Positions 858 through 22,589 of a stretch of 64,000 bases of DNA are shown here, piece after piece. This stretch comes from Patescibacteria group bacterium. Its GTDB lineage: Bacteria > Patescibacteriota > Patescibacteriia > UBA9570. Position 1 is the stretch's first letter. Every line of letters begins with the position of its first letter. Location of the stretch: positions 23,663 to 87,662 of the forward strand of contig JAJRVJ010000010.1 of assembly GCA_024277435.1 (NCBI GenBank). Reading direction: 5' to 3'. The position numbers were made by a program, and so were the translations under genes. The notes under the pieces were generated by a model. The model was given only the letters and a program-made list of their open reading frames with translations, was not told the DNA's origin and searched no databases.

Positions 858-2642
858 TCATTGCCAACCAGCAATACGAGCCCCTCCTGTAAATTCTTGT
901 TCATAAATGCGAGTATTGAATAGGGTCTCGCTTTCTCCTACACTATCCAGACGATAGATTTTTACCCAAGCCTGACCATTACTAGCTTGACTAGCAACAA
1001 TTTCCATTTTTCCTTCATTATCATCCCATTGTGTAGTTGACACATCTACACTTCCTGTAAAATCTTCTCCAAATGGAAAAAATGATATACCCTTATTCTT
1101 CCCTCGACCTGAAAATATTTTTATCCTTCCTGTTTTTTTACTCTCTGTTCCAGTAATAATATCCGCTTTTTTATCCCCATCAATATCTGCGCTAGTTACA
1201 TTTACCCCTCCCTTATATCTTGCTTTGTAGGGCTTAAACCGCTTAAGTACATTCGAGCCATCCTCATTAATAACCGCTACACGAGTTTTTGTCCCCTTGC
1301 GCGTACCAACGATAACCTCATCTATTCCGTCATTATCAATATCGCCAGCTGTAACATCTAGGCCGGATCGTGGATTATCAGCAAATGGCTGCATAGACCA
1401 TAATTCTGTGCCATTACGTTTATATACCTTCACTGTGGCAACTTGGCGCTTACCAGAACCAACGATAATCTCATCTTTGCCATCACCAGTAACATCACCA
1501 GTAACAACTCGTATAGCACCCTTTCGAAATGGTTTAAAGGTATTCACTATAGTGCCTTCTGGGCCAAATATACGAACCCGAGAGGTTTTTTTTGATGAGC
1601 CTGTACCAACAATAATATTTGTTTCTCCATCACCAGTAACATCACCTACTGCCACGTCACCACTTTTATTCCAACTTGAACTAAATGGATAAAATGAATT
1701 TAATGCTGTAGCGCCGTATGACCACTGCGTTATAAACGCATCGCTCGCATTACCCTTGGCAGCAACAACAGCGGCTGAAGTGTAACGATCAGGATCTTTG
1801 ACAACCCGTTTTGTAATTTTTGTTTTGTTACCAAAATTATCGGTTGCCACAATTCGTAATTGCATATCTCCATCGGCATACTCGGAAAGCGGCACTACCA
1901 CTGAATATGATCCGTGAACAGATTCTGTACTCGCAAGGGTTGCCCAGGTATCACTACTGTTTTGGCGAGCTCGATATTTAACGGATTGTAATCCACTACC
2001 AATATCCCGAGGTTCTGACGTAATAATTGCAGTGCTACCAACAATTTGACCAGCTTCAAGATCCCAACCAATTGTTGGTGACCAGTTATCTGTTATTAAG
2101 TGGTTAGGTATGTATACTTCCGGATCGTACCATTCATTGGCTGTTTCAGGATCTATAACATGTCCATAGTATATCCAATCTGAGCTATACGGTGTTTTAT
2201 GAATACCGTAGTGAAGATGAGTGCCCCATCCACCATTTTCTGAAGGAGATCCCAGGTAACCAATTACATCCCCTGCTTTTACCGATTGTCCAACTACTAC
2301 CGTTGGATTACTTGGCCTCAAGTGTCCATATAACGATACATTCGCTGATTCACCATCTGGAAAATGTTCAATAAGAATAACTAATCCAAAACTTGTTCGC
2401 TCTTGCGCTTCACGAACAATTCCATCTGCACTTGCATACACTGGATCACCGGCATCCAAATCAAACCCTACGTCAACTCCCATATGGTAGTAACTCTCCC
2501 CTATCTCCTCTCCGTGGGTAGTAGAAACGTTCCAGGAATCTAACGGGTATATATAGTTAGTTTTAGCACTAGCTATTGCGGGAACACCAAAGAAAGTAAT
2601 GCATAGACTAAAAGATAGGCAATATCTCAGGATAGTTCGCAT
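858..2642 (-). CDS. secreted M23 family metallopeptidase fused to FG-GAP/beta-propeller repeats
   Basis: N-terminal signal peptide (MRTILRYCLSFSLCITFFGVPAIASA). M23 motifs HMGVDVG...D and GTHLHYGIH. At least 4 repeats of GDVTGDGxxEIIVG / GDIDNDGIDEVIVG / ADIDGDKKADIITG (FG-GAP-like). Confidence 0.75.
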   Translation of the reverse strand: MRTILRYCLSFSLCITFFGVPAIASAKTNYIYPLDSWNVSTTHGEEIGESYYHMGVDVGFDLDAGDPVYASADGIVREAQERTSFGLVILIEHFPDGESANVSLYGHLRPSNPTVVVGQSVKAGDVIGYLGSPSENGGWGTHLHYGIHKTPYSSDWIYYGHVIDPETANEWYDPEVYIPNHLITDNWSPTIGWDLEAGQIVGSTAIITSEPRDIGSGLQSVKYRARQNSSDTWATLASTESVHGSYSVVVPLSEYADGDMQLRIVATDNFGNKTKITKRVVKDPDRYTSAAVVAAKGNASDAFITQWSYGATALNSFYPFSSSWNKSGDVAVGDVTGDGETNIIVGTGSSKKTSRVRIFGPEGTIVNTFKPFRKGAIRVVTGDVTGDGKDEIIVGSGKRQVATVKVYKRNGTELWSMQPFADNPRSGLDVTAGDIDNDGIDEVIVGTRKGTKTRVAVINEDGSNVLKRFKPYKARYKGGVNVTSADIDGDKKADIITGTESKKTGRIKIFSGRGKNKGISFFPFGEDFTGSVDVSTTQWDDNEGKMEIVASQASNGQAWVKIYRLDSVGESETLFNTRIYEQEFTGGARIAGWQ

Positions 2643-2669
2643 ATCTTTAGTATATCACGTCGCGATCTA

Positions 2670-3203
2670 CTAAAGTAGCTCTTCTAATTTTGCATAAAAA
2701 TCCTCTAGTGAACTGTTGTTTTCTATTATATGACTCGCAATTTTAGATAGATCAACGATACCAGCTTCAGTTGCATCCGATTCTCGTCTTGAAAACTCAT
2801 TAAATGACATATTTACTTCATCAGCCTTCTCAACCCTGTCTTTAATCCTATTATATCGCTCCTCTAGAGACGCAGTGATATATACTAGTGTAAAATCTGG
2901 TAACGACCTCAGGACTTCATATTCAGCCATGTAACGCATGCCATCAACAATATGCAACTCGTTAAGGTTATTATTCTGTAAGTCTTTATAAAGCACCCGA
3001 GCGAGCATGTCGTCACCAAATACAGTCCTTAGTACCGTACCAATCTGCACTAGATTAGCACGGCTATTTTCCTGGTGTAGTCGCTTAAGGATATCTGTTA
3101 AAGGCGCTGAAAATCGATAACTTGAGGCCTTGTGTGCATGAACAAAATAATCAGCTGCAGTAGTTTTGCCAGCTAATTTTTCTCCTGTTAAAGCAATAAT
3201 CAT
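2670..3203 (-). CDS. P-loop NTPase, (d)NMP/nucleoside kinase-like
   Basis: Walker A MIIALTGEKLAGKTT at the N-terminus. 177 aa. Sits inside a dut-tmk-dCMP deaminase nucleotide cluster. Confidence 0.5.
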   Translation of the reverse strand: MIIALTGEKLAGKTTAADYFVHAHKASSYRFSAPLTDILKRLHQENSRANLVQIGTVLRTVFGDDMLARVLYKDLQNNNLNELHIVDGMRYMAEYEVLRSLPDFTLVYITASLEERYNRIKDRVEKADEVNMSFNEFSRRESDATEAGIVDLSKIASHIIENNSSLEDFYAKLEELL

Positions 3204-3649
3204 ACAATAACAGTTTCTTTATCATTTTCAATGATTGCAAATTCAACATTTGCCTCCTTAAACATATTGATAACCGAATCATCTCGATATAAATTTCGAG
3301 CCACAACTCGTTTAATGTGTGCATTCAGAATGATTTTTGTACAAATTTTACACGGACTATGAGTTGTATACAGTGTTGATCCAGAAGTGGGCGTACCATG
3401 AACAGCTGCTTGAATAATCGCATTCTGTTCAGCATGAGTTGTGCGGACACAATGATTATTTTCCATCATATGTCCAACCTCATCACAGTGACCCAATCCA
3501 TGTGGAGCACCATTATAACCAGTTGAAATAATATATTTATCCTTAACAAGTACAGCACCAATATGCGCGCGATCGCACGTAGCACGACGCGACACCACTT
3601 CTGCGATATCGAGAAAATATTTATCTAATTCCGGACGACCATTAGCCAT
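3200..3649 (-). CDS. dCMP deaminase (cytidine/deoxycytidylate deaminase family)
   Basis: Zinc-binding motifs HAEQNAI and SPCKICTK. RPELDKYFLDIAEVVSRRATC matches the dCMP deaminase N-terminus. Alternative upstream start at 3667. Confidence 0.85.
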   Translation of the reverse strand: MANGRPELDKYFLDIAEVVSRRATCDRAHIGAVLVKDKYIISTGYNGAPHGLGHCDEVGHMMENNHCVRTTHAEQNAIIQAAVHGTPTSGSTLYTTHSPCKICTKIILNAHIKRVVARNLYRDDSVINMFKEANVEFAIIENDKETVIV

Positions 3650-3656
3650 GCCGGTA

Positions 3657-4337
3657 TTATACCACAATACGTATACCTGGGCTCATTGATGAGCAAATTA
3701 CAGCACTTATAATAAATTTGCCCTTAGACGTAGATGGCTTAACCTTACGAATAGCTTCTAAAGCAACGATGATATTATTTTGTAGCTGTTCCGAAGTAAA
3801 TGATACTTTACCGACACCCATATGAATATTGGCTGTGCTATCATTCTTAAAATTTACCTTACCCTTCTTTAAGCTCTCAACCATTTCTCTTATATTGGGT
3901 CCAATAGTTTCAGTTTTTGGATTTGGCATTAAGCCCTTTTGCCCCAATGTTCTTGCGATAGGCCCTAGTGATTTCATCATATTAGGTGTAGCAACGGCAA
4001 CATCGAAATTTACCTTACCAGTTTTTTTAATCTCATCAATCACCTCTTGTGTACCAATAATATCTGCGCCGGCTTCTTTAGCTTCTGCCTCTTTAGCGGG
4101 ACCAACAAATGCGATTACCCGGATAGTTTTTCCGCTACCATGCGGTAGATTCACTACTCCGCGAACGATTTGATCTGATTTTGATGCATCAATTCCTAAA
4201 CGAATATGTAACTCAACGCTACCATCAAATTTAGTTGGAGATTCCTGTAGTAGCGCAAGCGCCTCTGTTAACGGATATACTTTATCCGCATCAATCTTGC
4301 TTTTTAATTCTGTATAACGCTTTGAACGTTTAGCCAT
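3657..4337 (-). CDS. rplA: 50S ribosomal protein L1
   Basis: MAKRSKRYTELKSKIDADKVYPLTEALALL... is a typical L1. Conserved rplK-rplA order. Confidence 0.93.
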   Translation of the reverse strand: MAKRSKRYTELKSKIDADKVYPLTEALALLQESPTKFDGSVELHIRLGIDASKSDQIVRGVVNLPHGSGKTIRVIAFVGPAKEAEAKEAGADIIGTQEVIDEIKKTGKVNFDVAVATPNMMKSLGPIARTLGQKGLMPNPKTETIGPNIREMVESLKKGKVNFKNDSTANIHMGVGKVSFTSEQLQNNIIVALEAIRKVKPSTSKGKFIISAVICSSMSPGIRIVV

Positions 4338-4405: not shown

Positions 4406-4831
4406 TTATTCTTGAATGATAACACCCATTTGACGCGCGGTACCCTCGATAATTTTCATTGCGGCATCGATATCATTCGCATTAAGGTCGGGCATTTTTG
4501 TTTCAGCAATTTCACGTACTTGATCTCGAGTTAGCTTACCAACTTTATCGGTTTGTGGCTTACCGGATCCTTTCTTGATATTCGCAGCCTTCTTGATAAG
4601 TTCAGCTGCAGGTGGCGTTTTTACGATAAAATCGAATGATCGATCTTCATACACACTAATAACAACAGGAAGGATATTACCACGCTGATCCGCAGTTTTC
4701 GCATTGAAAGCGCTGCAGAAATCTTGAATGTTTAATCCATGCTGTCCGAGAGCTGGACCAACTGGAGGAGCGGGATTAGCCGCACCAGCTGGAATTTGCA
4801 ATTTAATAGTTGTTTTAAGAGTTTTAGCCAT
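4406..4831 (-). CDS. rplK: 50S ribosomal protein L11
   Basis: [30 protein letters not shown] is the L11 signature. Confidence 0.95.
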
Positions 4832-4837
4832 AGTATT

Positions 4838-5383
4838 TTATGATTTTTTAATCTGTAACGGATCTAGCTCAACTGGAGTTTCACGTCCAAACATTGATAC
4901 CATCACCTTAACTTTTCCACGAACTTCATCAACATCTGATACCTTACCTTCCATATCTTTAAATGGACCATCGATAATGCGGATGGAATCTCCAATGCCG
5001 AAATCCATATTCATGGTTGGTTGCTCGATACCCATGCGTCGTTTCAGTTCTTTTACTTCAGCTTCTGAAATTGGGGTTGGTGTGGTACCAGATCCAACGA
5101 AACCAGTAACATTTGGAGTGTTTCGAACAACGTACCAAGAGTCATCTGTAACGATCATTTCAACGAGCACATATCCTGGAAATATTTTTTCGGTAACAAC
5201 TTTACGCTTACCATTCTTAATCTTAATCTTCTTCTCAGTTGGAACTAATACATTGTAAATTTTATCCTCCATATCCATCGATTCTACACGTTGGCGGAGA
5301 TTATCAGATACATTTTCTTCGTAACCTGAGTAGGTATGTAATACATACCAACGTCTACCTTGTCCGGCGGTTTGCTTTGGCAT
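4838..5383 (-). CDS. nusG: transcription termination/antitermination factor NusG
   Basis: WYVLHTYSGYEENV NGN domain and a C-terminal KOW motif (GDSIRIIDGPFKDMEGKV). secE-nusG-rplKA synteny. Confidence 0.92.
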   Translation of the reverse strand: MPKQTAGQGRRWYVLHTYSGYEENVSDNLRQRVESMDMEDKIYNVLVPTEKKIKIKNGKRKVVTEKIFPGYVLVEMIVTDDSWYVVRNTPNVTGFVGSGTTPTPISEAEVKELKRRMGIEQPTMNMDFGIGDSIRIIDGPFKDMEGKVSDVDEVRGKVKVMVSMFGRETPVELDPLQIKKS

Positions 5384-5391
5384 ACTGTTTC

Positions 5392-5709
5392 TTAATTAAG
5401 CGTTTTTAAATCAATAAGATAATTCAATCCTTCATTGAATCCATAATCTAATATTCCTAGAAAGGCTGCTACAAAAATGCTGAAGGCGATAACAACTAAT
5501 GTGCTACGAATAGCCTCATCTCGAGTAGGCCAAGTTACCTTTTTAAACTCTTTGTAAGCATTTTGTGTATAGCGTATTAACGAAAACTTTTCATCATTAG
5601 CCACTTCCTTCGCTGGACCATCGACCTTCTTTGGATTATCTTCCTGCTTTTGAAGTTTACGCTGAAAACGTTCCGCAACTTGCTCGTCTGACTGTTGCTC
5701 TTTTGCCAT
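5392..5709 (-). CDS. secE: preprotein translocase subunit SecE
   Basis: EFKKVTWPTRDEAIRSTLVVIAFSIFVAAFLGILD with one C-terminal TM. Position upstream of nusG. Confidence 0.88.
   Translation of the reverse strand: MAKEQQSDEQVAERFQRKLQKQEDNPKKVDGPAKEVANDEKFSLIRYTQNAYKEFKKVTWPTRDEAIRSTLVVIAFSIFVAAFLGILDYGFNEGLNYLIDLKTLN

Positions 5710-6353: not shown

Positions 6354-6354
<1 letters not shown>
5803..6354 (-). CDS. CTP-transferase family membrane protein, CDP-archaeol synthase (CarS)/CdsA-like
   Basis: 183 aa polytopic membrane protein. GDHKTWRGF resembles the CdsA KTWEG signature. C-terminal FKRRVGIKPG...PFDQLDFVIG resembles the CarS/DUF46 motif. Confidence 0.6.
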
Positions 6355-8450
<2,096 letters not shown>

Positions 8451-8467: not shown

Positions 8468-10846
8468 TTAATAACGGTGTTTAGCATTATATTGCTTACG
8501 TAATTCTTTTACGATATTTTCACGAATCTGCTCAGCCTCTTTCATTTCTAGCGTACGATTATCAGCTGCGAGTACAAAACGTATACCTAGGGACTTATGA
8601 TTATCTGCTACTTTATCGCCAGTGTATACATCAAAAATTTCGGTATTTTGCAATAAGTCTTTAGATTTATCCTGGATAACTGATTGAATTTGTTTCCATG
8701 TAACAGCATTTTCTACTTCTATGGAAATATCTAAATCAAGCGATGGATAAGCATTAATTTTTTGATACTCTGTCACCGAAGTCATGAGCTCTGAGAATCG
8801 AGGTAAATGAATTTCTGCGTAGGCCAAGTGTTTTTCTATTCCAAATTTTTTGGCAACACGAGAAGAAATCACCCCCATTGTGATGAGATGCTTTTTACTT
8901 GCAACATATCTCACATCAGTAAGTGGATCGAATAGCATGAATGGCGCATTTGCGCTTTCCTCACGCTCGGTTATGATACGTAATTTTGCGTTAATGTTAG
9001 CCTGCGCTAATAATGATTCCACAACACCCTTTAACCTGTAGAATACCGATTCATCATCACCTGTCATAGCAATTCCAACTACTGGGAATTCATTTTCATC
9101 AAAGTACACATGCCCGTATTCAGATAATAACAGTTCTTCCTGATGATTATCTAGATTGCGACGTGCGACTTGAAGTATATTTACCAATAATGTCTGCCGT
9201 AAATATTGTTGCTGTGGATTCATTGGATTCAGAATTTCAATATGCCCATCTACTTCTAATCCAGCATTATTAATATCTTGCTCACTATAAAACGAGTAAT
9301 TGTATGTTTCCATAGCACCCAAGCCTGCGAGCCAGTGAATTAACTTCTGACCGGTATGAAAATCGCTTTGTTTAAATGGAGGTTCCAATGTACCTAATAA
9401 TGGCTGTGGCGCTACTTTGTCATAGCCATACATGCGAGCCACTTCTTCTACAATATCTTGATGATTATGAATATCGGTGCGCCACAATGGAACAGTTACC
9501 TCTATCATACTATCATCTTTTTCTACTACTTTAAATCCTAAACCAACTAACCAGCGATGCGTATCTTCTACAGGAACATCAACTCCGATTAATCTATTAA
9601 TGTAATCTAAATCAACTACTACAACAGTTTTTTCCGGCTCAGCCTCTCCAACGTCAATAACTTCAGATGAAATAGTTGCTCCAGCATATTTTTGAAGTAA
9701 ATCTACTGCTCTCCAAAATCCCACTGTAGACATCGATCTACCTAAACCTTTTTCATGTCGTGTACTACCATCGGTGCGAGCAGCAGCGGTTTGCGCAGTT
9801 GTGCGTATAGTTACACCATCAAATTGCGCTGATTCAAGAATAATACTTGTTGTCCTGTCATTCACTTCTGTTTCCGTTCCACCCATTATTCCAGCTAAAG
9901 CTGTTGCCCGCTTAGAATCTGCAATCACCAACATTGATTCCTCTAATTTGCGATCCTTGCCATCAAGTGTTTTTAGAGCCTCGCCCTTCTTAGCTCTTCG
10001 AACATTAATTTCTTTACCATCTACCTTGTCGTAATCGAATGCATGCAATGGTTGGCCGAATTCATACATTACATAATTCGTGATATCCACAACATTATTT
10101 ATCACCTTTACACCAACGGCAACTAAGCGTTCTTGCATCCAATCTGGTGATGGGCCAATTATAATGTTATTCAACACAGCGCCTAAATAGCGATGACAGC
10201 CTTCAGGATCTTTAATGTTAATAGATAACTCATCTTTTCCAAATTGTTCTGCGAATTGTGTAAAATCTGGGATGGTAAGAGGTGTGTTTAGTACTACACT
10301 TAATTCGCGAGCAAATCCGATATGATTAAATAAATCGCTACGATGTGTAAGTGTTTTATTATCAATATCAATGATTACATCATTTAAATTAAGGGCTTCA
10401 CTTACAGGAGTGCCGTTTGCAGGATCATCCTTGGTAAAGAGATGTATTTCTTCGGCACCATTTAGTATATTAATTTCAGAATTCAAGCAGCACATACCTT
10501 GTGATAATTCACCACGTAATTTCCGCTTTTCAATGGTAATATCTCCAATTTTGGCACCCGGTAACGCAACTGGTAGGCGATCACCAGGATTAAGAATAGC
10601 CTTACCTCCAAATACAATCTGGCGCGGCTCATCTTCGCCTACATCAAATTTACCAATGTTTAAATTATCAGCGTCAGGATGTTTTTTAGCTTCTAGAACT
10701 TCTCCGATAACAATATGTTGCAAGTGTTTTGCTTGCTCATCAATTTCTTCTACTTCTGCAATATGCAAAGTAATGAGATTTGCTAATGTTTGCGGATCCT
10801 CTTTAATATCAATGTATTCTTTGAGCCAATTTAACGATAACTTCAT
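8468..10846 (-). CDS. pheT: phenylalanine--tRNA ligase beta subunit
   Basis: N-terminus MKLSLNWLKEYIDI, B3/4 and B5 domains, about 790 aa. Start moved to the internal ATG at 10846, which lies 10 nt after the reconstructed pheS stop. Confidence 0.9.
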   Translation of the reverse strand: MKLSLNWLKEYIDIKEDPQTLANLITLHIAEVEEIDEQAKHLQHIVIGEVLEAKKHPDADNLNIGKFDVGEDEPRQIVFGGKAILNPGDRLPVALPGAKIGDITIEKRKLRGELSQGMCCLNSEINILNGAEEIHLFTKDDPANGTPVSEALNLNDVIIDIDNKTLTHRSDLFNHIGFARELSVVLNTPLTIPDFTQFAEQFGKDELSINIKDPEGCHRYLGAVLNNIIIGPSPDWMQERLVAVGVKVINNVVDITNYVMYEFGQPLHAFDYDKVDGKEINVRRAKKGEALKTLDGKDRKLEESMLVIADSKRATALAGIMGGTETEVNDRTTSIILESAQFDGVTIRTTAQTAAARTDGSTRHEKGLGRSMSTVGFWRAVDLLQKYAGATISSEVIDVGEAEPEKTVVVVDLDYINRLIGVDVPVEDTHRWLVGLGFKVVEKDDSMIEVTVPLWRTDIHNHQDIVEEVARMYGYDKVAPQPLLGTLEPPFKQSDFHTGQKLIHWLAGLGAMETYNYSFYSEQDINNAGLEVDGHIEILNPMNPQQQYLRQTLLVNILQVARRNLDNHQEELLLSEYGHVYFDENEFPVVGIAMTGDDESVFYRLKGVVESLLAQANINAKLRIITEREESANAPFMLFDPLTDVRYVASKKHLITMGVISSRVAKKFGIEKHLAYAEIHLPRFSELMTSVTEYQKINAYPSLDLDISIEVENAVTWKQIQSVIQDKSKDLLQNTEIFDVYTGDKVADNHKSLGIRFVLAADNRTLEMKEAEQIRENIVKELRKQYNAKHRY

Positions 10847-10856
10847 ATATGTATTA

Positions 10857-11897
10857 CTAGAATTGCTTATTAAATCTACTATCCCCCGCCATGAACAAAC
10901 GAATGTCATCAATTCCGTACTTCATCATTGCGAGACGATTAATTCCCATGCCAAAGGCAAAGCCTGTGTATTTTCCTGGCTCATATCCAGCGGATTCAAA
11001 TACTTTTGGATGAATCATTCCACAACCTAGCATTTCTACCCAGCCAGTATTTTTACATACAGAGCACCCTTTTCCATCACAATTTACACATGAACAATCC
11101 GCCTCAAATCACGGCTCAACATACGGAAAATAACCTGGTCGCAAGCGAATTTGTACTTCACGTTGCAGTATTTGCGACATTGATTTCTTTAATACATACG
11201 TAAGATTGGCAACAGAAATATTATCTCCAACTACAAATCCTTCTAACTGGTAAAATGTATGGTCATGTGATGCGTCGGTAGATTCGTTCCGGAATACTCT
11301 ACCAGGAACAATTACACGGAGCGGTGGTGTGAATTTTTCCATCATACGTACCTGCATATTGGAGGTATGCGTACGCAGCACCTGCTTTTTACCATCCTTA
11401 CTATCCTCTTTAACATAAAATGTATCTTGCAAATCACGCGCTGGATGTGTAGGTGGAATATTTAAAAATTCAAAACAGTAATCATCAGTTTCTAATTCAT
11501 TACCTTCCATCACGGTAAATCCCATTGAATAGAAAATATCGATAAGTTCTTCTTGCACCTGTCGCAGTGGATGAATATAGCCACGCTGAGCTGATGTGCC
11601 TGGTAGCGTAGCATCAAAAGAACCTAGCTGATCCTTACCTTCGCTTCGTTTTTTAATTTCATCACTAAGGCGTTTCTGAATGTCTGATTTTACTGTATTA
11701 GCCAACTGACCAATGGTACGCTTTTCTTGCTTATCAGAAATATCCTTCAAACTTTTCAATGCTGCAGTTAATTTCCCATTTTTTCTACCTAAATATGTAT
11801 CTTTTAAGGCTTGTAACTGCTCTTTTGAAGATACATTCGCTAAATCGCTAGTGAAATTAGCTTGAATATCCTTAAGTTGTTGTTGTAAATCACTCAT
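10857..11897 (-). CDS. pheS: phenylalanine--tRNA ligase alpha subunit, interrupted by an in-frame TGA at 11109-11111
   Basis: The ORF-track piece 11109..11897 ends ...[12 protein letters not shown] at TGA. The same frame continues [83 protein letters not shown] to a TAG at 10857-10859. That reproduces the conserved PheS C-terminus; compare E. coli FPFTEPSAEVDV...LGCGMVHP...GFAFGMGMERL...NDLRFLKQF. Confidence 0.85.
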
Positions 11898-12319
11898 ACT
11901 GTATCTTTAGCCTTTGTTTGGCGAGTTATTGGCGTCTGCTTTTTTGTTAAATAAAATCCCTCTAGCACAATTAGCCCAATAAGCAGCATTCCAACGGACC
12001 ATAAATTAAACACATTTTTCGAAAATAACATCAGTGAGATAATCACTAGTAGTGCAAACCAGATTGCCTGCCGAATAGATGGAGTTACTAGACGAAATGT
12101 TACTGTAGTACGATGTCTAATTCGCTTAATAAGTACTCGAACTCCCAAACCTAACAGCGCGAACGAACCGAGTAGTGAGAAGAATAGCGATGCATAGAAA
12201 ACAAAAATTCCTACTAACCCAGATAACTCCGGATCTATGTAAAACAATACAGTTAGCCAGGCTGCCCAGCTAACTATAGTTACGCTTGCGACTGATATCA
12301 AGAAGCGTTGTAATGACAT
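11894..12319 (-). CDS. small integral membrane protein (4 predicted TM helices), unknown function
   Basis: 141-aa hydrophobic ORF. Its stop overlaps the pheS start by 4 nt (ATGA coupling). Confidence 0.5.
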   Translation of the reverse strand: MSLQRFLISVASVTIVSWAAWLTVLFYIDPELSGLVGIFVFYASLFFSLLGSFALLGLGVRVLIKRIRHRTTVTFRLVTPSIRQAIWFALLVIISLMLFSKNVFNLWSVGMLLIGLIVLEGFYLTKKQTPITRQTKAKDTV

Positions 12320-12376: not shown

Positions 12377-15300
12377 TTATGACCCAAGACGTTCCTTACC
12401 TGCAATTTGTGATATAGCCCTCCATTCATCTGCGCCAACTTCAAAGTCTCCATTACCAGCGGGTACGGTATCGGCGAATGCGTCCATAAAAAATCTATCT
12501 ACGTTTGTTGTAGCTAACGCATTATCACTTACAGCTCTAGCAATAAGCTGTCCAGCTGGGCCACTTTCAAATGTAATGCCGTATGCCTCAATAATAGGAG
12601 GTTTAGCGCTTCGTAATGCTTTCTTAATAGCCCGCAATGCAGCTCTTGGCCCCATACCATTATCAGATTCGTGAAATGCAAGGGTTTTTTCTAAATCATT
12701 TACTACTGATTGGATAACCTCTGGATCTTCTAGCGCTGATTGAGCATCTAAATCTAATTCATCAGCCACAACAATATCTTCTGGCCCTCCATCACCCATA
12801 ACAGAGTCCGAAGCATCAACGGTAGCGCTATCTACCCGAGCCATTCCAGCTGACTCTACATCAACCGCTCCTGGCCCAGCACCAATAACTTCATCAACAG
12901 CAACAATTCCTGCGTTCTCTGGAACAACAGCTGCAGAGGCTTGTAGCGCAAGCCAATCTTGATAAGCAATTGCACTAGCCTCAGCTAATGTACTATCTTC
13001 TATAAAGGAAGTTGATCCATATACACTCATTTCATCACCCAGGTGCCCTATAGCACCAGTAGTAAAGTCTCCTGAGTGAGATCCAATTGCATGCCATCCA
13101 TCTTGTGCCATACCTAAGTATTCATCTGAATGCACTGCCCAAAATTCTTGAAAGGTACTAGGAACATCGGTAACCTCTAATCCCATATCGCTCGCTGTGC
13201 CGACATCAATAACTCCTGGGGAAAAGCTTGTGGCGGCAACTTCAACTGAAGATCCTGAGGCTGTACTAGCAACTAATTCTCCACCAGCGGCATGTAGTTG
13301 GAGTTCTTGAGCTAAGTCGTTACCTTGTAATATAGTTCGGGTAGCTGTATCGAATAATTGGATCGTAGCACTACCATCACTTACTGATAGTACTGGAACT
13401 ACCGCATCAGCCTTATCTATCCATAACTGCGCCCCTGTAGCTGCGTTTATAATTGGCTGCGCATCAGCTGCCCCAGCCACAGGCATTTCTGTGTTATGCA
13501 TTAAATCTACTAAGAAGCGATTAGCCCAAGTTGCTTTACTACCCATACCTTCTGTATAGCCCAATGTTTCCGCATTTTCCATTACTTGGGGACGTAAACT
13601 CTGCCAAAACCCCTCACCTTTTGCTACGGTCATTTCAGTCCAAACAGCATCTGGAATATCAGCTACCTCGGCACTCACCGCTTCTGCCACGGGTTCTGCA
13701 GGAGTCGCTGATGGCGTAGGTTCAACAGGTATAGGTGATGCGGCGGCAGATGTTGATTCGGGAGTAGCTAGCTCCGGAGATACAGAAGTAGGCGCGGGTG
13801 CTGGTAATGGTTCTGGCGAGGGTGTAGCTTCAACTACTGGTGCCGAAGTTGGTTCAGGTGTTGGTAAGGAATCGGATGTATCTGGCACTCCCATTACAGC
13901 TGCACTATCCGCACCAGACTCTGTAGCGCTAGTTACTAAATCGCTCGCCCCTCCAAAAAAAGCGTAGATTGAATTCTTAACCTCGCTTAATGTCTCAAAT
14001 ACACGATGGCCAACAGTGGTTTCTCCAAACATATCGCTAGCCCCACCAGCGGCATCCCATATAAATCCACTACCAAATGCTGCTGCTATTGCTCCCGTGA
14101 TTATTTTTTGTATTTTTCTACGTTCCTGTAAATCCTGGCGCACTGTAAATAATTTATCATCAAGCTCCGCAAATAATAGTCCAAGTTTTTGCTCTAAATC
14201 CATTGCATCTGGTCCATTAAGAATTTCCTGACGTTTATATTTCATGTAATGCCGTGAAGCATTATGATACAACAGAGAATTAATTTTACTTCCTTGAATA
14301 GAACTTCTAGCCTCAAAATGCACTATGGCCTCACCAAAGCGTTGCCAATCACCTTCTGAACTATGTTCATCAGGCCACGCACCTTTCGCTAACGCGGCTT
14401 CGGCGGATGCAATTTGTTTTTGTTGAACCAAACCATCAAAACCAATATATGTCATCCCTGAACGTGCTAGCACAGCTGCGCCAGCTCCAAGTGACGCCGC
14501 TACAGTTACTGGAGCACTACCAGCCACAGCAATAGCACCTAAGGTACTAGCTCCAGTTGCTAATGCTATACTTGTAGCTGTTCGCATAGACATCATGTTT
14601 AGCGCTGCATTGACAAGTTTACTATCTGGCCGACTACCGCGCGCCCTTTCATATAGTGCGCCTGCATTCATATCCCCTAATCTTTTCCACACACCTTTAA
14701 TTGTTTCACGTAATGGATGATCAATTATTTCACGCTCCGCAATCTCATCAAGTACACTTAATCGTTCAGCTAGAGCTAATTGAATCTTCTCTTTAACAAA
14801 TTGCGTTCTCTCAGCTGAATACTCATCACGTTTTGCTTCAACATCAGCAACTTCAACCCTACCTCGTTCAAGTTCTTTTTGAAGGTGAATATATTCAAGA
14901 CGCAGCTTACGTAAATTATCTGCTGCTGTGCCAATAGTATCGTCAAGACGATCTAATTCATCTTTATATTCTTTTGGAAGATCTTCCTCAGTAAAACCGT
15001 GTTGCGCTAATTTATCTTGCCGAGCCTCTTCAAAGCTACTAAGAACCGGACCTGGATCTGGTGGTGGTTCTGGTAAATCTGAATCAAGCCGCACCTCCAT
15101 AACAGACAAAGCCAAGCTACCGCGTTGCTGATCTTGATTTCTCTTTAAAGCTTCAGCCATTAAATTCTCTTGAATTACTCGGGTATCACCATGAGCCTCC
15201 ATGATTATTCTTTCAATATCACTTGCGCTCAACATATCAAATACGACCCCGCCATTGTCAGATAAAATAAGATCACCTCGCTCTAACTGCAGTTCTTCTC

Positions 15301-15922
15301 CTGGATCAATAAGATTCCTTAAAGTTTGGAGGCGACCCCTTATAAATACATATACGGAAACTTGTTCGGGTAGCTGTTGTCGTTCTGCGTAGCTAATGTT
15401 TCCATCTGCAGAAATTCGTACAAGAGAAGCAGAATATTCCGCATCTTCCGGAGCGTTTGGATTGGCGTCAGCTAGATTAAATACCGACTCTAAATTATTA
15501 CCAACAGCAGAAATATTATTTGCAACAATAACACCAATACCTTCAGCCATCATATGACCATTTGTTTCACTACCAGAAACCTTCTTTATGCCGTGTCCAG
15601 TAACAATACCTATTGCTACAGACCCATCGCTTTCGACGCTTCTCACAATATTATTCTGATTTTCCCTAACCAGTGAGCCCTTTTTCCCACCATAATGTGA
15701 TTGGGCATGAATTTCTACTACAGGATTCACAGCATGAAACTCCTGATGCGGTGCTCGCTCAGGTTTTTTCCAATATTCTGCGGTAGCGCCAAATGTGTTA
15801 ACTCCCAACTCTAAATGCTGCGGGCGACGATCCGCCTCAGCTCGTCGTTCTGAGGGCTTTTTCCAATCAGCCGTTCTACGTTCTACGTTACGGGGTGTTC
15901 CTACCATATATATGTTAGACAA
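12377..15922 (-). CDS. large multidomain protein: N-terminal PP2C-like phosphatase-like domain, coiled coil, Gly/Ala-rich hydrophobic segment, Pro/Thr-rich linker, and a C-terminal domain of unknown function
   Basis: 1181-aa uninterrupted ORF. The N-terminus has an imperfect internal repeat WKKPSERRAE / WKKPERAPHQE. GIVTGHGIKK...SVYVFIRGRLQTL...GDLILSDNGGVVFDML resembles PP2C/SpoIIE motifs. Coiled-coil roughly aa 330-400. Hydrophobic block TATSIALATGASTLGAIAVAGSAPVTVAASLGAGAAVLA. Linker PTPEPTSAPVVEATPSPEPLPAPAPTSVSPELATPESTS. Visibly more GC-rich than its neighbours. Confidence 0.6.
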   Translation of the reverse strand: MSNIYMVGTPRNVERRTADWKKPSERRAEADRRPQHLELGVNTFGATAEYWKKPERAPHQEFHAVNPVVEIHAQSHYGGKKGSLVRENQNNIVRSVESDGSVAIGIVTGHGIKKVSGSETNGHMMAEGIGVIVANNISAVGNNLESVFNLADANPNAPEDAEYSASLVRISADGNISYAERQQLPEQVSVYVFIRGRLQTLRNLIDPGEELQLERGDLILSDNGGVVFDMLSASDIERIIMEAHGDTRVIQENLMAEALKRNQDQQRGSLALSVMEVRLDSDLPEPPPDPGPVLSSFEEARQDKLAQHGFTEEDLPKEYKDELDRLDDTIGTAADNLRKLRLEYIHLQKELERGRVEVADVEAKRDEYSAERTQFVKEKIQLALAERLSVLDEIAEREIIDHPLRETIKGVWKRLGDMNAGALYERARGSRPDSKLVNAALNMMSMRTATSIALATGASTLGAIAVAGSAPVTVAASLGAGAAVLARSGMTYIGFDGLVQQKQIASAEAALAKGAWPDEHSSEGDWQRFGEAIVHFEARSSIQGSKINSLLYHNASRHYMKYKRQEILNGPDAMDLEQKLGLLFAELDDKLFTVRQDLQERRKIQKIITGAIAAAFGSGFIWDAAGGASDMFGETTVGHRVFETLSEVKNSIYAFFGGASDLVTSATESGADSAAVMGVPDTSDSLPTPEPTSAPVVEATPSPEPLPAPAPTSVSPELATPESTSAAASPIPVEPTPSATPAEPVAEAVSAEVADIPDAVWTEMTVAKGEGFWQSLRPQVMENAETLGYTEGMGSKATWANRFLVDLMHNTEMPVAGAADAQPIINAATGAQLWIDKADAVVPVLSVSDGSATIQLFDTATRTILQGNDLAQELQLHAAGGELVASTASGSSVEVAATSFSPGVIDVGTASDMGLEVTDVPSTFQEFWAVHSDEYLGMAQDGWHAIGSHSGDFTTGAIGHLGDEMSVYGSTSFIEDSTLAEASAIAYQDWLALQASAAVVPENAGIVAVDEVIGAGPGAVDVESAGMARVDSATVDASDSVMGDGGPEDIVVADELDLDAQSALEDPEVIQSVVNDLEKTLAFHESDNGMGPRAALRAIKKALRSAKPPIIEAYGITFESGPAGQLIARAVSDNALATTNVDRFFMDAFADTVPAGNGDFEVGADEWRAISQIAGKERLGS

Positions 15923-16214: not shown

Positions 16215-16386
16215 ATGTATATGACGAAGCTAATTGTGTAGTAGTTAATTTATGTTTCTACAATTTAATATATCATATATTAACAAAAAATAATATCACA
16301 ATCATGTGCGATTGTCAAGTCCTACTGTATGTTTTGATTAAATTACTTCTCTTAAATAAGAAATACACAGTTATTTAGAAAGTCCA

Positions 16387-16415
16387 TTGACAGTTTTAAG
16401 TAACTGCAATAGAAT
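16387..16415 (+). promoter_or_regulatory. sigma70-type promoter of the ATP synthase operon
   Basis: TTGACA (16387-16392), 17-nt spacer, TAGAAT (16410-16415). The ATG of the first operon gene is at 16424, about 8 nt after the -10, implying a leaderless or near-leaderless transcript. Confidence 0.7.
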
Positions 16416-16714: not shown

Positions 16715-17476
16715 ATGATTGAAATTAGTTTAAAGCCTGATGTTCTAGGCATATTTGCAGGATTCCCAATTACGAATGCACTTTTAGTATCTGTACTTAC
16801 CACCATTGTATTATGTGTAATATTTATGTTTGTAGCACGAAGAATGAAGCAAGTGCCTGGTAGATTGCAATTATTTGTAGAAACATTTCTTACAGGAAGT
16901 TACGAATTCGTACATGGCGTTACTCAGAACGAAACAGTAACCAAACGAATGTTTCCTATTTTTACAACATTATTACTGTTTTTCTTAGCTGCTAACCTCA
17001 CTGGATTCATTCCAGGACTTGCAGCACTATCCTTTAATGATATGCCATTATATAGATCAGCGACTTCAGATTATGCGCTGATTTTTGTTATTACGATGGT
17101 GATGTTTATTGGATGGCAGTTGGTTGCTATAGTTTCTGGTGGTTTATTTGGATATGTAAAAAAGTATATCAACTTCTCAAGCCCAATGGATTTTGTAATG
17201 GGACTTCTTGATATTATTGGTGAGAGTGCAAAAATCGTTTCCTTATCGTTTCGTTTGTTCGGAAATATTTTTGCTGGAGAAGTGATTGCCACAGTAATGC
17301 TAGTGTTAATGCCGTATGTAGCACCAGTACCTTTTGCACTTTTAGGATTGTTGAGCTCAGTAATTCAGGCAGCGGTATTCCCTATTTTGGTTTTGATCTT
17401 CTTTAATATGGCTATTGTCGTAAAAGAAGAAAAGCAAAAAGAAGTGCTAGTAGCAGAAGGCGCTAGTACGAAATAA
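16715..17476 (+). CDS. atpB: F0F1 ATP synthase subunit a
   Basis: Conserved SLSFRLFGNIFAGE motif with the essential Arg. Polytopic. Confidence 0.92.
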   Translation: MIEISLKPDVLGIFAGFPITNALLVSVLTTIVLCVIFMFVARRMKQVPGRLQLFVETFLTGSYEFVHGVTQNETVTKRMFPIFTTLLLFFLAANLTGFIPGLAALSFNDMPLYRSATSDYALIFVITMVMFIGWQLVAIVSGGLFGYVKKYINFSSPMDFVMGLLDIIGESAKIVSLSFRLFGNIFAGEVIATVMLVLMPYVAPVPFALLGLLSSVIQAAVFPILVLIFFNMAIVVKEEKQKEVLVAEGASTK

Positions 17477-17519
17477 TTTTATCAATATTTAATAAACAAC
17501 TAATAAATAATACACAAAT

Positions 17520-17750
17520 ATGGAATTAGAAGCAGCACGTTTAATCGCAGCCGGATTAGCAATGGGACTAGGTGCCATTGGTTCAGGTATTGGTGAAGGT
17601 ATCGCCGCTGGTCGCGCACTAGAAGCAATGGGACGTAACCCAAGCCTTAAAGACGAATTATTCACTCGAATGATTGTAGCTATGGCTATTACGGAATCTA
17701 CCGCTATTTATGCATTGGTAGTAACTTTATTAATCCTTTTTGCTGTTTAG
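17520..17750 (+). CDS. atpE: F0F1 ATP synthase subunit c
   Basis: 76 aa hairpin proteolipid. GxGxGxG and the carboxylate E in AITESTAIYALVV. Confidence 0.92.
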   Translation: MELEAARLIAAGLAMGLGAIGSGIGEGIAAGRALEAMGRNPSLKDELFTRMIVAMAITESTAIYALVVTLLILFAV

Positions 17751-17756
17751 TCCCCT

Positions 17757-18254
17757 ATGGGTCAATTATTTGAAGCACTTGGCTTAGATCTTAAAATCCT
17801 TATTGCGCAGTTAGTAAACTTCGCAATTCTATTTGCAGTACTATATAAACTTGGTTACAAACCAATTATGAAATTTGTAGCTGAACGTACTGCAACTATT
17901 GAGGAGGGTGTAAAACATGCAGAAGATGCCAAAAAAGCTTTAGCGGACGCTCAGCAAGATCAGGATCGTATTCTGGCTGAAGCTCGCAAGGAAGCTCAAT
18001 CAATTATCACTGAAGCTCGTGAGCAAGCTGTAAAGCAAGCTGATTCCATTGTTGGAAAAAGTAAAGAGCAAACAGCAAAGGTTGTTGATAAAGCAAAACA
18101 AGATATTCGCAGAGAGCATGAACAAATGATTCAACAGGCTAAAGCAGAGCTATCGGATGTTGTATTACTGGCAACAGAAAAGGTATTGCAAGAAAAAATT
18201 GACGCGCCAGCTGATAAGGCGTTTGTTGAAAAAACACTCTCTCAAATAAAATAA
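17757..18254 (+). CDS. atpF: F0F1 ATP synthase subunit b
   Basis: N-terminal TM followed by a long charged helix. Operon position. Confidence 0.85.
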   Translation: MGQLFEALGLDLKILIAQLVNFAILFAVLYKLGYKPIMKFVAERTATIEEGVKHAEDAKKALADAQQDQDRILAEARKEAQSIITEAREQAVKQADSIVGKSKEQTAKVVDKAKQDIRREHEQMIQQAKAELSDVVLLATEKVLQEKIDAPADKAFVEKTLSQIK

Positions 18255-18257
18255 CAT

Positions 18258-18650
18258 ATGAAATTAACCGCCAAACATTACGCTCAAGCATTGTATGAAC
18301 TATCTGCTGAAGTTGATAGCCCTGAGAAATCCAAGTACATGAAGAAATTCTTAAGTACCATGTATTCACGTGGTCATATTAAATGGCTACCTACAGTTGT
18401 ACGTGAATTGGGGCTTATTGAAGAACGCGCTTCTGGAATTACACATGTACGAGTTACCACTGCTCGTGAAAGCGATAGTAATGAAGTAAAGAAAATCGTA
18501 CAAGAAGCTATAAGCGAGGATAATATTGAGTTAACCACAGCGGTTGATCCAGTACTCCTAGGTGGAATGCGCATTGAAACACGTGATAAGCGCTGGGATT
18601 TGTCTGTTCGTGGACAACTGCAAGCACTTATTCATACAATGCAACGATAG
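18258..18650 (+). CDS. atpH: F0F1 ATP synthase subunit delta (OSCP), short form
   Basis: 130 aa. Operon position between atpF and atpA. C-terminal LLGGMRIE...[10 protein letters not shown] matches the delta C-domain. Confidence 0.8.
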
Positions 18651-18690
18651 TAAATATTTAATTGAAGAACGAATTACGAATAAGAACGTT

Positions 18691-20223
18691 ATGGCTGAAG
18701 TAAAAGATTCAATTGTTCAACAACTCAAAGAAGAGATTGCTGATTTTAAAACTTCTATTCAAAAGGAAGATATCGGCACCGTTGTTGAAGTAGCTGACGG
18801 AATTGTAAAAGCCGTTGGTTTAGCGCAAGTACAAGCCTCCGAAATGGTTGAGTTTGATAATGGCGTGCTTGGTGTAGCGCTCAATCTAGAAGAAGGTTCC
18901 GTAGGTATCATGATTATGGGTGATTACACAGGTATCTCCGAAGGAATGAAAGTAAAAGGTCTTGGCCGCATTTTAGAGGTGCCGGTTGGAGAAGCGATGA
19001 TTGGTCGTGTGGTTGATGCACTTGGTAAAGCTAAAGATGGAAAAGGAGATATTAAATCTGATAAAACGTACCCGATGGAACGAGTTGCACCTGGTGTGAT
19101 GACACGTAAATCTGTTCATCGACCAATGCAAACTGGTATTAAATCTATTGATGCCATGACACCAGTTGGTCGCGGTCAACGTGAATTGATTATTGGTGAT
19201 CGTCAAACTGGCAAAACTGCTATTGCTATTGATACCATTCTTAACCAAAAAGGTGAGGATGTTATTTGTATCTACGTAGCAATTGGTCAAAAGGAAAGTA
19301 AAATCCGTCAATTAGTAGCTCGCCTAGAAGAAGCCGGTGCAATGGAATACACTATCATTGTTACTGCCTCAGCTGCAGAGCCCGCTGCCCTAAACTACCT
19401 AGCTCCGTATGCTGGTTGCGCCATGGGTGAATACTTCATGGATAATGGCAAAGATGCATTGATTATCTACGATGACCTTTCAAAGCATGCCGTTGCTTAC
19501 CGACAAATTTCCCTCTTATTGCGTCGTCCACCAGGACGAGAAGCGTATCCTGGAGATGTGTTTTATGCTCACTCTCGCCTACTGGAACGCGCTGCTAAAC
19601 TGAATGAAGATAATGGAGGCGGATCACTAACTGCCCTACCAATTATTGAAACTCAAGCTAATGATGTATCAGCCTATATTCCTACAAATGTAATTTCCAT
19701 TACTGATGGACAAATTTATTTGGAGACTAACCTATTTAATAAGGGTATGCGTCCGGCGGTAAATGTAGGTTTATCTGTATCTCGCGTAGGTGGCGCTGCT
19801 CAAATTAAGGGCATGAAAAAAGTTGCTGGTAACCTACGTCTCGGATTGGCTCAATACCGAGAATTAGAAGCCTTTGCTCAATTCGGATCCGATCTTGATG
19901 ATGCTACAAAACAACAACTAGCGCGTGGTAAACGACTAGATGAATTATTGAAACAAGATCAATACAAACCACTACGTGTAGAAGAACAAGTTGTTCAACT
20001 CTATACTGTAAATGCAGGATGGATGGATGATATTGAACCAACAAAAATCAAACAATTTGGTGAAGGACTACTGGAATATGTAGATCAAAATGCAAAAGAA
20101 ATCTACTCGAAAATTGTTGAAGAAAAAATGTTTGATGAAGCTTGGGAAAAGAAACTAGAAGAAGTAATTAAAGCGTATAAGAGCATTCTGGAAACAGAAA
20201 TGTTCGTACCAAAAGCTGATTAA
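18691..20223 (+). CDS. atpA: F0F1 ATP synthase subunit alpha
   Basis: Walker [41 protein letters not shown]. Start set to MAEVKDS, since the ORF track includes 43 spurious upstream codons. Confidence 0.95.
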
Positions 20224-20231
20224 TTGCCATT

Positions 20232-21164
20232 ATGCCAGTACAAGCACGCGAAATTAAAGGACGTCTCAAATCCATTAAAAACACGAGTAAAATTACTCAT
20301 ACAATGGAATTGGTTGCTGCTGCAAAAATGCGTCGAGCAGTTTCTTCAGCTCTTGATAGCCGACCATATGCTGCACTTGCCTGGGATCTCATGAGTCGCC
20401 TACGTGATTCAACAGCAATTACCGAAGGTGATTCTATCATGCGCTTCTTTGATGACGTTAAGCCATTAAAAGATGGTAAGAATCATACAACCATTATCCT
20501 ACTTACTTCTAATCGTGGATTGTGTGGGGCATTGAATACGAATGTACTTAAAAAAGTGATTCCGTATATTTCTAATCACAAAGATGAAGTTATAGATGTT
20601 ATTGGTGTAGGAAAAAAGGGTGTAAGTATTCTTAATAGCTTTGGACATAAATCTGAACTTGCTTATGAAAAAGATGATTCTGCTAAAGATGATGAATCCA
20701 TTCGTGATCTTGTAGTATATGTACATAAGAAGTTTAAGGATGGTAAGACCGGAAAAGTAATGGTTGCCTACACAGATTTCAAATCTGCTGTAATGCAAAA
20801 TGCTACCCTAAAACAAGTATTCCCTTTTACAAAAAATGATGACATCGCGGCTGCGGTAGATAATATTGATGAAAAGAAAGAGCGTGTTGAAAAACCTGAT
20901 GTACAATTCCCATATGTGTATGAACCAACTGAAGGAATTGTACTTGAATACCTTATTCCGCGGGTACTCACATCTGAAATTTATCAAGCATTGTTAGAAA
21001 GTAATGCCTCCGAGCATAGCTCTCGAATGATTGCGATGAAAAATGCAACAGAATCAGCGGCAGAAATGGCCGATGAGCTTAAATTGGAATTTAATAGGGC
21101 TCGTCAAGCTGGTATCACCCAAGAAATTGCGGAAATCTCAGCTGGATCAGCGGCAATTTCTTAA
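20232..21164 (+). CDS. atpG: F0F1 ATP synthase subunit gamma
   Basis: MPVQAREIKGRLKSIKNTSKITHTMELVAAAKMRRA N-terminus. C-terminal ITQEIAEI...SGSAA. Confidence 0.92.
   Translation: MPVQAREIKGRLKSIKNTSKITHTMELVAAAKMRRAVSSALDSRPYAALAWDLMSRLRDSTAITEGDSIMRFFDDVKPLKDGKNHTTIILLTSNRGLCGALNTNVLKKVIPYISNHKDEVIDVIGVGKKGVSILNSFGHKSELAYEKDDSAKDDESIRDLVVYVHKKFKDGKTGKVMVAYTDFKSAVMQNATLKQVFPFTKNDDIAAAVDNIDEKKERVEKPDVQFPYVYEPTEGIVLEYLIPRVLTSEIYQALLESNASEHSSRMIAMKNATESAAEMADELKLEFNRARQAGITQEIAEISAGSAAIS

Positions 21165-22589
<1,425 letters not shown>

Follow-up and report, generated by a model that had tools for sequence, protein, structure and literature searches.

The window analysed here is a 64,000-nucleotide stretch of the genome of a Patescibacteria group bacterium (GenBank assembly GCA_024277435.1, contig JAJRVJ010000010.1, positions 23,663 to 87,662). 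Its largest open reading frame (ORF), at 12377..15922 on the reverse strand, runs for 1181 codons counted from a TTG; the second largest, pheT, encodes 814 amino acids (aa). An ATG at 15907, five codons inside this frame, is the probable start of the gene and gives a product of 1176 aa, the numbering of which we follow throughout and which matches a public protein record (P0001) that is a singleton. A sequence-only reading of the same DNA had pointed to the size of this frame and to its place between pheST and the F-type ATP synthase (atp) operon, and we find both to be so; two small genes that it left unmentioned intervene, one for a DUF5663 protein upstream and one for a protein with four transmembrane (TM) segments downstream. 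We find that the large gene is intact and native, and that it encodes a core without a described counterpart: a membrane-anchored, probably PP2C-derived head appears to have been grafted onto an uncharacterised protein family of candidate phyla radiation (CPR) bacteria.

As the sequence-only reading had proposed, no named family covers the protein as a whole. Pfam, NCBIfam, PADLOC and PDB sequences gave no significant match; weak matches to SLATT and ZapB (E above 0.04) were dismissed as coiled-coil noise, and one to the PADLOC model LeoC (E=0.037) as noise. A phmmer search of 1.84 billion representative proteins returned seven matches in total. One of these, P0004, is a fragment of a close relative (38% identity) from a locus that we call L001 (GCA_964345015.1), at which a collinear gene is interrupted by 10-N gaps and one frameshift. 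The stitched L001 protein has 1260 aa and is 33% identical to the window protein over its whole length, and its flanks match those in the window, with DUF5663 upstream, the four-TM protein downstream and a divergent ATPase operon. Four distant members (P0005, P0007, P0008 and P0009) match query residues 256–628 only, at E values of 4e-6 to 4e-4, and the N- and C-terminal regions of the window protein are common to L001 only. Other searches added little: a word-indexed protein search with the whole protein matched the query alone, and with alignments of the core and the N-terminal domain it matched nothing, the query included, low-complexity words having probably swamped the candidates. Scans of a genome-contig collection for relatives found none, and neither did an earlier metagenome scan. 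A metagenome scan seeded with the core motifs only yielded the loci L010–L014, among which L011–L014 are four new members.

Table 1. The large gene, its parts and its immediate surroundings (positions in the window; residues of the 1176-aa product)
Feature	Residues	Position	Strand	Basis or remark
Divergent promoter-like TTGACA-17-TAGAAT		16387-16415	+	Consensus match; faces the atp operon
Promoter-like TTGACA-17-TATTAT, TG extended		16290..16318	-	Consensus match, 11/12; ~75 nt upstream of the DUF5663 gene
DUF5663 gene, 99 aa		15915..16214	-	Pfam PF18908 at E=7e-4, which falls short of the curated cut-off; 8 nt separate its stop from the large gene's ATG
Large gene, 1176 aa	1-1176	12377..15907	-	ATG 15907, TAA 12377-12379
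N-terminal tail	1-35	15803..15907	-	Contains the first WKKP..ER copy
Degenerate PP2C-derived domain (probable)	36-272	15092..15802	-	Homology to the L001 N-terminal domain
Long alpha-helical stalk, possible coiled coil	300-400	14708..15010	-	AlphaFold helices, pLDDT (predicted local distance difference test) 70-83
Juxtamembrane signature W-K-x-L-G-[DE]-x-N ... S-x-R-T	401-442	14582..14707	-	52% identity to L001
Gly/Ala-rich hydrophobic block with central GSAP, putative membrane hairpin	443-485	14453..14581	-	Kyte-Doolittle 1.2-1.6
Helical mid-region, H-F-E motif, invariant G and Y	486-598	14114..14452	-	Family alignments
Second hydrophobic segment, G-S-G motif, putative TM helix	599-621	14045..14113	-	Hydropathy, alignments
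Gly/Ser-rich segment, then Pro/Ala/Ser/Thr/Val/Glu linker	622-752	13652..14044	-	Composition
W-x-EMTV-x-GEGFW...TWANRFLV stretch	753-802	13502..13651	-	61% identity to L001, best-conserved stretch between the two
Acidic Ala/Gly/Asp/Val-rich C-terminal region	803-1176	12380..13501	-	Common to L001 only, partly deleted there
141-aa protein, four hydrophobic segments		11894..12319	-	Separated by 57 nt from the end of the large gene; ATGA overlap with the pheS start

The conserved core consists, in order, of a helical stalk that ends in E-Y-x-x-x-R-A-E-[YF]-V, the motif W-K-x-L-G-[DE]-x-N, a basic stretch that ends in S-x-R-T, a Gly-rich hydrophobic block, a helical region of ~110 residues with H-F-E, and a second hydrophobic helix with G-S-G. 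The K, L, N, S and R of the juxtamembrane signature are invariant in 8 family members, and the first hydrophobic block keeps its position across the family, with a length of 21–28 residues in the distant members. The window protein has these motifs in order, next to a DUF5663 gene, as do other members of what we provisionally call the DUF5663-linked core family; the score of a local core hidden Markov model (HMM) is circular for it, as the query was in the seed. Two members have public names, KPJ86160.1 (a ‘hypothetical protein’ of Parcubacteria bacterium SG8_24) and MFB6212804.1 (Candidatus Magasanikbacteria), and the family therefore occurs in CPR bacteria; some ten loci underlie our view of its size and taxonomic spread. 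The only Pfam or NCBIfam domain found in the core-family proteins is an HhH motif in one member.

The association with DUF5663 is consistent. Using a local HMM of 6 DUF5663 homologues, we found a DUF5663 gene adjoining the core-family gene in each of the nine distinct loci with readable flanks (the window, L001, L003/4/10, L005-8, L009, L011, L012, L013 and L014; L002 was left out of the count because its contig ends too early). In most loci it lies directly upstream on the same strand, and the Magasanikbacteria homologue carries the NCBI name ‘DUF5663 domain-containing protein’. We found no paper that mentions DUF5663 or PF18908. What surrounds the core varies: KPJ86160.1 and MFB6212804.1 share the core and the adjacent DUF5663 gene with the window protein, whereas their N- and C-terminal regions are unrelated to it, one member carries the HhH motif, and others have an accessory domain of ~750 aa, separate or fused. 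This ~750-aa protein lies between the DUF5663 and core-family genes in L005 (578-2842) and upstream of the core-family gene in L002 (2-1888). It is homologous (E=7e-12) to residues 220–504 of the 1613-aa core-family protein of L011 (about 4680-5530), which indicates that the domain is fused to the core there. By eye, N-L-D-T and F-x-D-H-H-G-P motifs in the L005 protein recall DHH phosphoesterases, an assignment that we rejected, as Pfam, NCBIfam and PDB gave no match.

The head of the window protein is best understood through L001. To judge from its alignments, the N-terminal domain of the L001 protein is clearly a motif-complete PP2C domain: it matches the NCBIfam model Stp1_PP2C_phos (Stp1/IreP) at E=1.7e-11, with 214 of the 232 profile positions covered, and the Pfam model PP2C_2 at E=8e-4. 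With hhalign it scores 41.9 (P=2e-5, 219 columns; shuffle maximum 18.1) against a reference alignment of PstP (2CM1) and tPphA (2J82), both sequences having been verified against the PDB. Its NED, FDGAG, RGDAR, GSDG and GDNIT strings align to the PstP motifs, with equal spacing from GD to SD. PDB sequence searches with this domain and with an N-terminal domain profile gave no meaningful match.

The corresponding domain of the window protein has no such signal of its own, with no Pfam match at E<=10 for residues 1–300, no NCBIfam match at E<=1 for the protein, and an hhalign score of 14.1 against the same reference, the level of shuffled controls. Its tie to PP2C runs through the sister protein. 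BLASTP aligns the two N-terminal domains at E=4e-5 (residues 36–106), and a second part, from residue 206, falls within a high-scoring segment pair of E=4e-23; hhalign gives 26.9 for the two domains by themselves, where shuffled sequences reach 21.5 at most, and both occupy the same place in collinear proteins. We consider it moderately well supported by these comparisons that the window domain descends from a PP2C domain. The sequence-only reading had picked out three strings as resembling PP2C/SpoIIE phosphatases; these map to residues 99–108, 184–199 and 210–234 and fall exactly on the DGxGG, GDSR and SDG positions, so that the motif positions were rightly chosen, but the window protein matches no PP2C profile.

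What remains of the motifs is NQN (83–85), TGHG (103–106), RG-R (190–192), SDNGG (216–220) and RGSLALSVMEV (262–272): NQN replaces NED, TGHG replaces DGxG, and the Asp of GDxR and that of DN are missing. We read the catalytic columns by transitive alignment, from PstP through L001 to the window. PstP R20 corresponds to R87 in L001 and V80 in the window, D25 to D92 and N85 (NED to NQN), D38 to D110 and T103, D118 to D185 and a gap, D191 to D265 and G219 (with D217 two residues upstream), and D229 to D329 and a gap. The Asp is thus lost in four of the five PP2C motifs, and ~78 residues of the L001 domain, the flap region included, are missing. By the standard of a PP2C/PPM enzyme, the window protein has neither the profile match nor the metal-binding Asp residues. 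PstP needs two Mn2+ ions, which D38 and D229 coordinate, and replacing either residue by Gly (D38G, D229G) leaves minimal activity only (PMC3052367). Phosphatase activity of the window domain is, on this alignment, very unlikely; the absence of equivalents of D25, D38, D118 and D229, the check that the sequence-only reading had itself suggested, comes close to refuting it, with D217 still near the SDG column.

Ahead of this domain, the motif WKKP..ER occurs twice (residues 15–23 and 46–52), and a 13-nt DNA repeat (12/13 identical, 93 nt apart) underlies the duplication. The sequence-only reading had described a basic, duplicated N terminus; the duplication is there, but residues 1–60 are only mildly basic (12 K+R and 9 D+E). 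A 7-nt unit, CGTTCTA, is repeated 2.6 times at 15872-15889, in codons 7–12 of the gene (..VERRT..), and is probably trivial. After the domain, AlphaFold predicts a long helix at ~312–393 (pLDDT 74–83 even from a single sequence), which bears out part of the long coiled coil proposed earlier, although its heptad-like pattern is weak and its best hydrophobic period is 3.55 residues. This stalk is 35% identical to that of L001 over residues 300–400 and is aligned in the distant members too. In other respects the models say little: residues 1–438 modelled as a single sequence have a mean pLDDT of 41, with values below 50 over residues 20–276, and the core modelled with 6 alignment rows is all-helical with a mean pLDDT of 51.5.

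The Gly/Ala-rich hydrophobic block that the sequence-only reading took for a possible membrane hairpin is present, and a second hydrophobic segment that it missed follows the mid-region. The first block spans 39–43 residues in the window protein with its GSAP turn at the centre, and is strongly basic before and has RR or R after; it contains small-xxx-small ladders but no strict GxxxG. The second segment has basic residues before it (RRKIQK) and acidic ones after, and in P0007 the residues that precede it carry a charge of +6. No Kyte–Doolittle window exceeds 1.2 before residue 443 and the N terminus is charged, so that by hydropathy there is no signal peptide; the secreted effector suggested earlier is accordingly unsupported. 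The positive-inside rule would place the N-terminal part together with the mid-region in the cytoplasm, with the first block forming an in–in hairpin. On the same rule the second helix would cross outward, and the Pro/Thr linker and the acidic C-terminal domain would lie on the cell surface.

The last two parts of the protein are much as the sequence-only reading described them. The low-complexity linker at ~660–752 (P20 A18 S15 T11 in 98 residues) contains no tandem DNA repeat, and the C-terminal part (753–1176) is strongly acidic, with 65 D+E and 19 K+R. In L001 the linker (about 8540-9150) has ~200 extra residues absent from the window protein, among them two helical segments that resemble each other, ..DDAQVASIMDIIRSGGAKTVQQAMEIL.. 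and ..NNNEVDKIIELYETGQEKTIERAVKSY... The best-conserved stretch shared with L001, residues 753–802, was not found in the distant family members, and the C-terminal domain as a whole, whose distribution the earlier reading had asked about, is likewise absent from them. A LysM-like wall-binding domain at residues 753–805 was considered on a likeness seen by eye and dismissed for want of profile support: the C-terminal 457 residues gave no Pfam match at E<=10, and no LysM match was found in the distant members at E<=0.01.

The composition of the gene sets it apart from its neighbours, as had been remarked, but only in part. Its GC content is 0.443, compared with 0.39 for the window and 0.36–0.43 for the neighbouring genes, and codon positions 1 and 2 account for all of the excess: the gene has GC1/GC2/GC3 of 0.614/0.455/0.263, whereas 49 other ORFs average 0.512/0.356/0.305 (standard deviation 0.04). 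In four-fold codon families the third-base preferences are the same as elsewhere. Ala makes up 13.3% of the protein compared with 7.2% elsewhere, and Ile, Lys, Tyr and Phe are fewer. The GC excess therefore follows from the amino-acid content of an Ala/Gly-rich protein, and because GC3 and synonymous codon use are native the composition is no sign of foreign DNA. In a collection of ~15 billion proteins clustered at 90% identity, AtpD (21195-22589), GyrB (6354-8426), CTP synthase (32341-33996), MetRS, ribosomal protein L1 and further housekeeping products of the window are each a singleton. That collection accordingly contains no close sequenced relative of the source organism, and thin sampling of the lineage goes some way to explain why the large protein is nearly an orphan.

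The four-TM gene downstream is kept at the same position in L001 (10101-10482), where a run of N splits it into two halves that match at phmmer E=1e-26 and 7e-12, one value for each half; it was not found near the distant core-family members. No terminator-like site was found between the large gene, the four-TM gene and pheST, and these genes may be co-transcribed. The promoter-like sites in Table 1 belong to a region in which the number of such sites equals the shuffle expectation. Scans of the window for Rfam families and tRNAs gave no matches. In pheS (10915-11897, reverse strand), a single in-frame TGA at 11109-11111 falls at the conserved ‘F-P-[FY]-x-E-P-[SG]’ position (..YFPYVEP, the TGA, then FEADC..), and the frame runs on past it to a normal PheS C terminus (..RFNKQF). 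An alternative genetic code was rejected, because TGA ends 10 of the 51 ORFs in the window, several with ATGA overlaps, and the code is therefore standard; the TGA could stem from an error in base calling or assembly, from strain variation or from read-through. The ATPase operon that diverges from the cassette is of the F type in the window (16715-22589, forward strand; subunits a, b, alpha, gamma and beta). In L001 the operon at the corresponding place (932-4291, reverse strand) is of the A/V type (V_ATPase_I, ATP-synt_C, vATP-synt_E, AC39 and ATP-synt_F).

The nearest known architecture is that of PstP (Rv0018c; PDB 2CM1/1TXO; an Stp1/IreP-type PP2C, NCBIfam NF033484), in which a cytoplasmic catalytic domain of 237 aa is joined by a juxtamembrane segment and a single TM helix to an extracellular domain of 191 aa (PMC3052367). 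The two proteins share the order of their parts, from a PP2C-type domain at the N terminus through the juxtamembrane segment and the membrane anchor to a C-terminal part rich in Pro. The window protein differs in its degenerate catalytic site and lack of any PP2C model match, in a helical stalk of ~100 residues, in having two hydrophobic blocks where PstP has a single TM helix, and in a C-terminal part more than twice as long. Its neighbours are DUF5663, the four-TM gene, pheST and atp, in contrast to an operon of the ftsW–pbp–pknB type, and on its two hydrophobic blocks and these neighbours it falls outside the PstP-like membrane phosphatases. PP2C-fold pseudophosphatases such as human TAB1 have an incomplete metal site and are used for binding or scaffolding. 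TAB1 resembles the window protein in having a PP2C-derived domain with such a site, but it is soluble and eukaryotic, and the two share no sequence relationship beyond the fold family, the fold of the window domain being putative. SpoIIE of Bacillus, with ten N-terminal TM helices and an active C-terminal PP2C domain, is likewise a single chain that includes a PP2C domain, membrane segments and a regulatory region made of helices; in the window protein the order of the parts is reversed and the PP2C domain is degenerate.

Taken as a structural and evolutionary statement, we think it somewhat better than an even bet that the large protein is a native, membrane-embedded scaffold of an uncharacterised CPR family that carries a catalytically dead PP2C relic. 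Several points weigh against this. There is only one close relative, and its assembly has gaps and a frameshift; the homology of the two N-terminal domains taken alone is modest (hhalign E=0.0045) and leans partly on collinearity; and D217, two residues from the SDG column, might still bind metal. The topology is inferred from the positive-inside rule only. Both AlphaFold models are of low confidence and give fold-level support to no part of the protein, and neither DUF5663 nor the core has a functional record in the literature. The first block of the distant members, at 21–28 residues, fits one span and not a hairpin, which makes a two-span arrangement a serious rival.

In that arrangement the family and the dead head are the same, each block is a single span, the ~110-residue mid-region alone lies outside and both termini are cytoplasmic, and the protein would be a scaffold on the inner face of the membrane, for example in division or envelope synthesis. 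We judge this unlikely, though well short of negligible. Besides the short first block, it is favoured by the L003 and L009 members, whose neighbours include genes for housekeeping and for the cell wall (FtsW, MurG and Mur ligases), and by the fact that cytoplasmic scaffold proteins can also carry Pro/Ala-rich acidic linkers; the basic residues before the second helix (RRKIQK, and +6 in P0007) place the mid-region inside, and the window protein's own first block is long enough, with its central turn, for a hairpin. The sequence-only reading had raised the membrane-tethered signalling phosphatase. The membrane association and the multidomain build of that proposal hold up, and an active, PstP-like enzyme would place an Mn2+-dependent cytoplasmic domain under the control of the membrane and extracellular parts. 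The order of the parts does mirror PstP, with the PP2C-derived domain, the membrane segments and the Pro-rich C-terminal part (PMC3052367), the L001 sister retains all PP2C motifs, and D212 and D217 are still present in the GD...SD region. Yet the profile signal is absent, N, T and two gaps stand at the columns of D25, D38, D118 and D229, in a domain short of ~78 residues, the loss of D38 or D229 alone leaves PstP nearly inactive (PMC3052367), and no Hanks kinase or FHA gene occurs among the window genes scanned (about 1–47 kb). We regard an active enzyme as improbable.

More improbable again is a surface or secreted effector acquired horizontally, whose foreign origin would explain the higher GC. 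The GC contrast with the window and an acidic, low-complexity C-terminal part with homology to L001 only could be taken that way. The contrast is, however, accounted for by the Ala content, GC3 lies below the neighbour mean with identical third-base preferences, hydropathy shows no signal peptide, and the orphan status is matched by the housekeeping singletons; moreover, the three-gene arrangement and the adjacent ATPase operon are kept in L001. Finally, the degenerate N-terminal domain, together with the in-frame TGA in the essential neighbour pheS as a hint of errors in the record, could suggest that the single ORF is a product of chimeric assembly or a pseudogene in decay. This would have to coexist with 1176 stop-free codons in AT-rich DNA, with an L001 protein collinear from the N-terminal domain to the C terminus, and with P0004, which covers query residues ~495–802 and so crosses the suspected junction at 13.6–14.0 kb in an independent assembly. 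The mis-assembly raised as a possibility by the sequence-only reading is unlikely, and we give an artefact of either kind hardly any weight.

On the favoured reading of a native scaffold with a dead head, different lineages would attach different N- and C-terminal regions to the conserved core, and in the lineage of the window the N-terminal attachment would have been a PP2C Ser/Thr phosphatase domain of the PstP/Stp1 type. Having lost the metal-binding Asp residues and ~78 residues besides, this domain should no longer be capable of phosphoserine or phosphothreonine hydrolysis, and on the cytoplasmic stalk it would do no more than provide for binding or dimerisation. The scaffold may work with DUF5663, tying a lineage-specific surface domain through the membrane core to the stalk. 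We hold any physiological role for a membrane-spanning scaffold with far less confidence than the structural and evolutionary statement. More tentatively than that statement, we suggest that DUF5663 and the core could form an undescribed envelope-spanning module, widespread among CPR bacteria, a chassis with exchangeable heads and surface domains that couples the cell surface to cytoplasmic signalling.

Two lessons for annotation follow: any likeness to a motif needs checking at the catalytic columns, and when a gene is Ala/Gly-rich, its raised GC content does not count as evidence for horizontal transfer. The window protein and L001 also offer a natural comparison between a degenerate and an intact PP2C domain on the same chassis, which is useful for asking what role bacterial pseudophosphatases have. 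If the module exists as proposed, it would couple events at the cell surface, such as contact with the wall or a host, to phospho- or nucleotide-dependent signalling in the cytoplasm. The heads grafted onto it would include the PP2C domain of L001, the dead relic in the window, the HhH domain in Magasanikbacteria and the ~750-aa domain with the ‘FFDHHGP’ motif, separate in L005 and L002 and fused in L011. CPR genomes are small, yet they keep very large membrane proteins of uncharacterised role, and a conserved two-gene module of DUF5663 and a core protein of ~1100–1600 aa would give a concrete handle on the biology of the CPR envelope.

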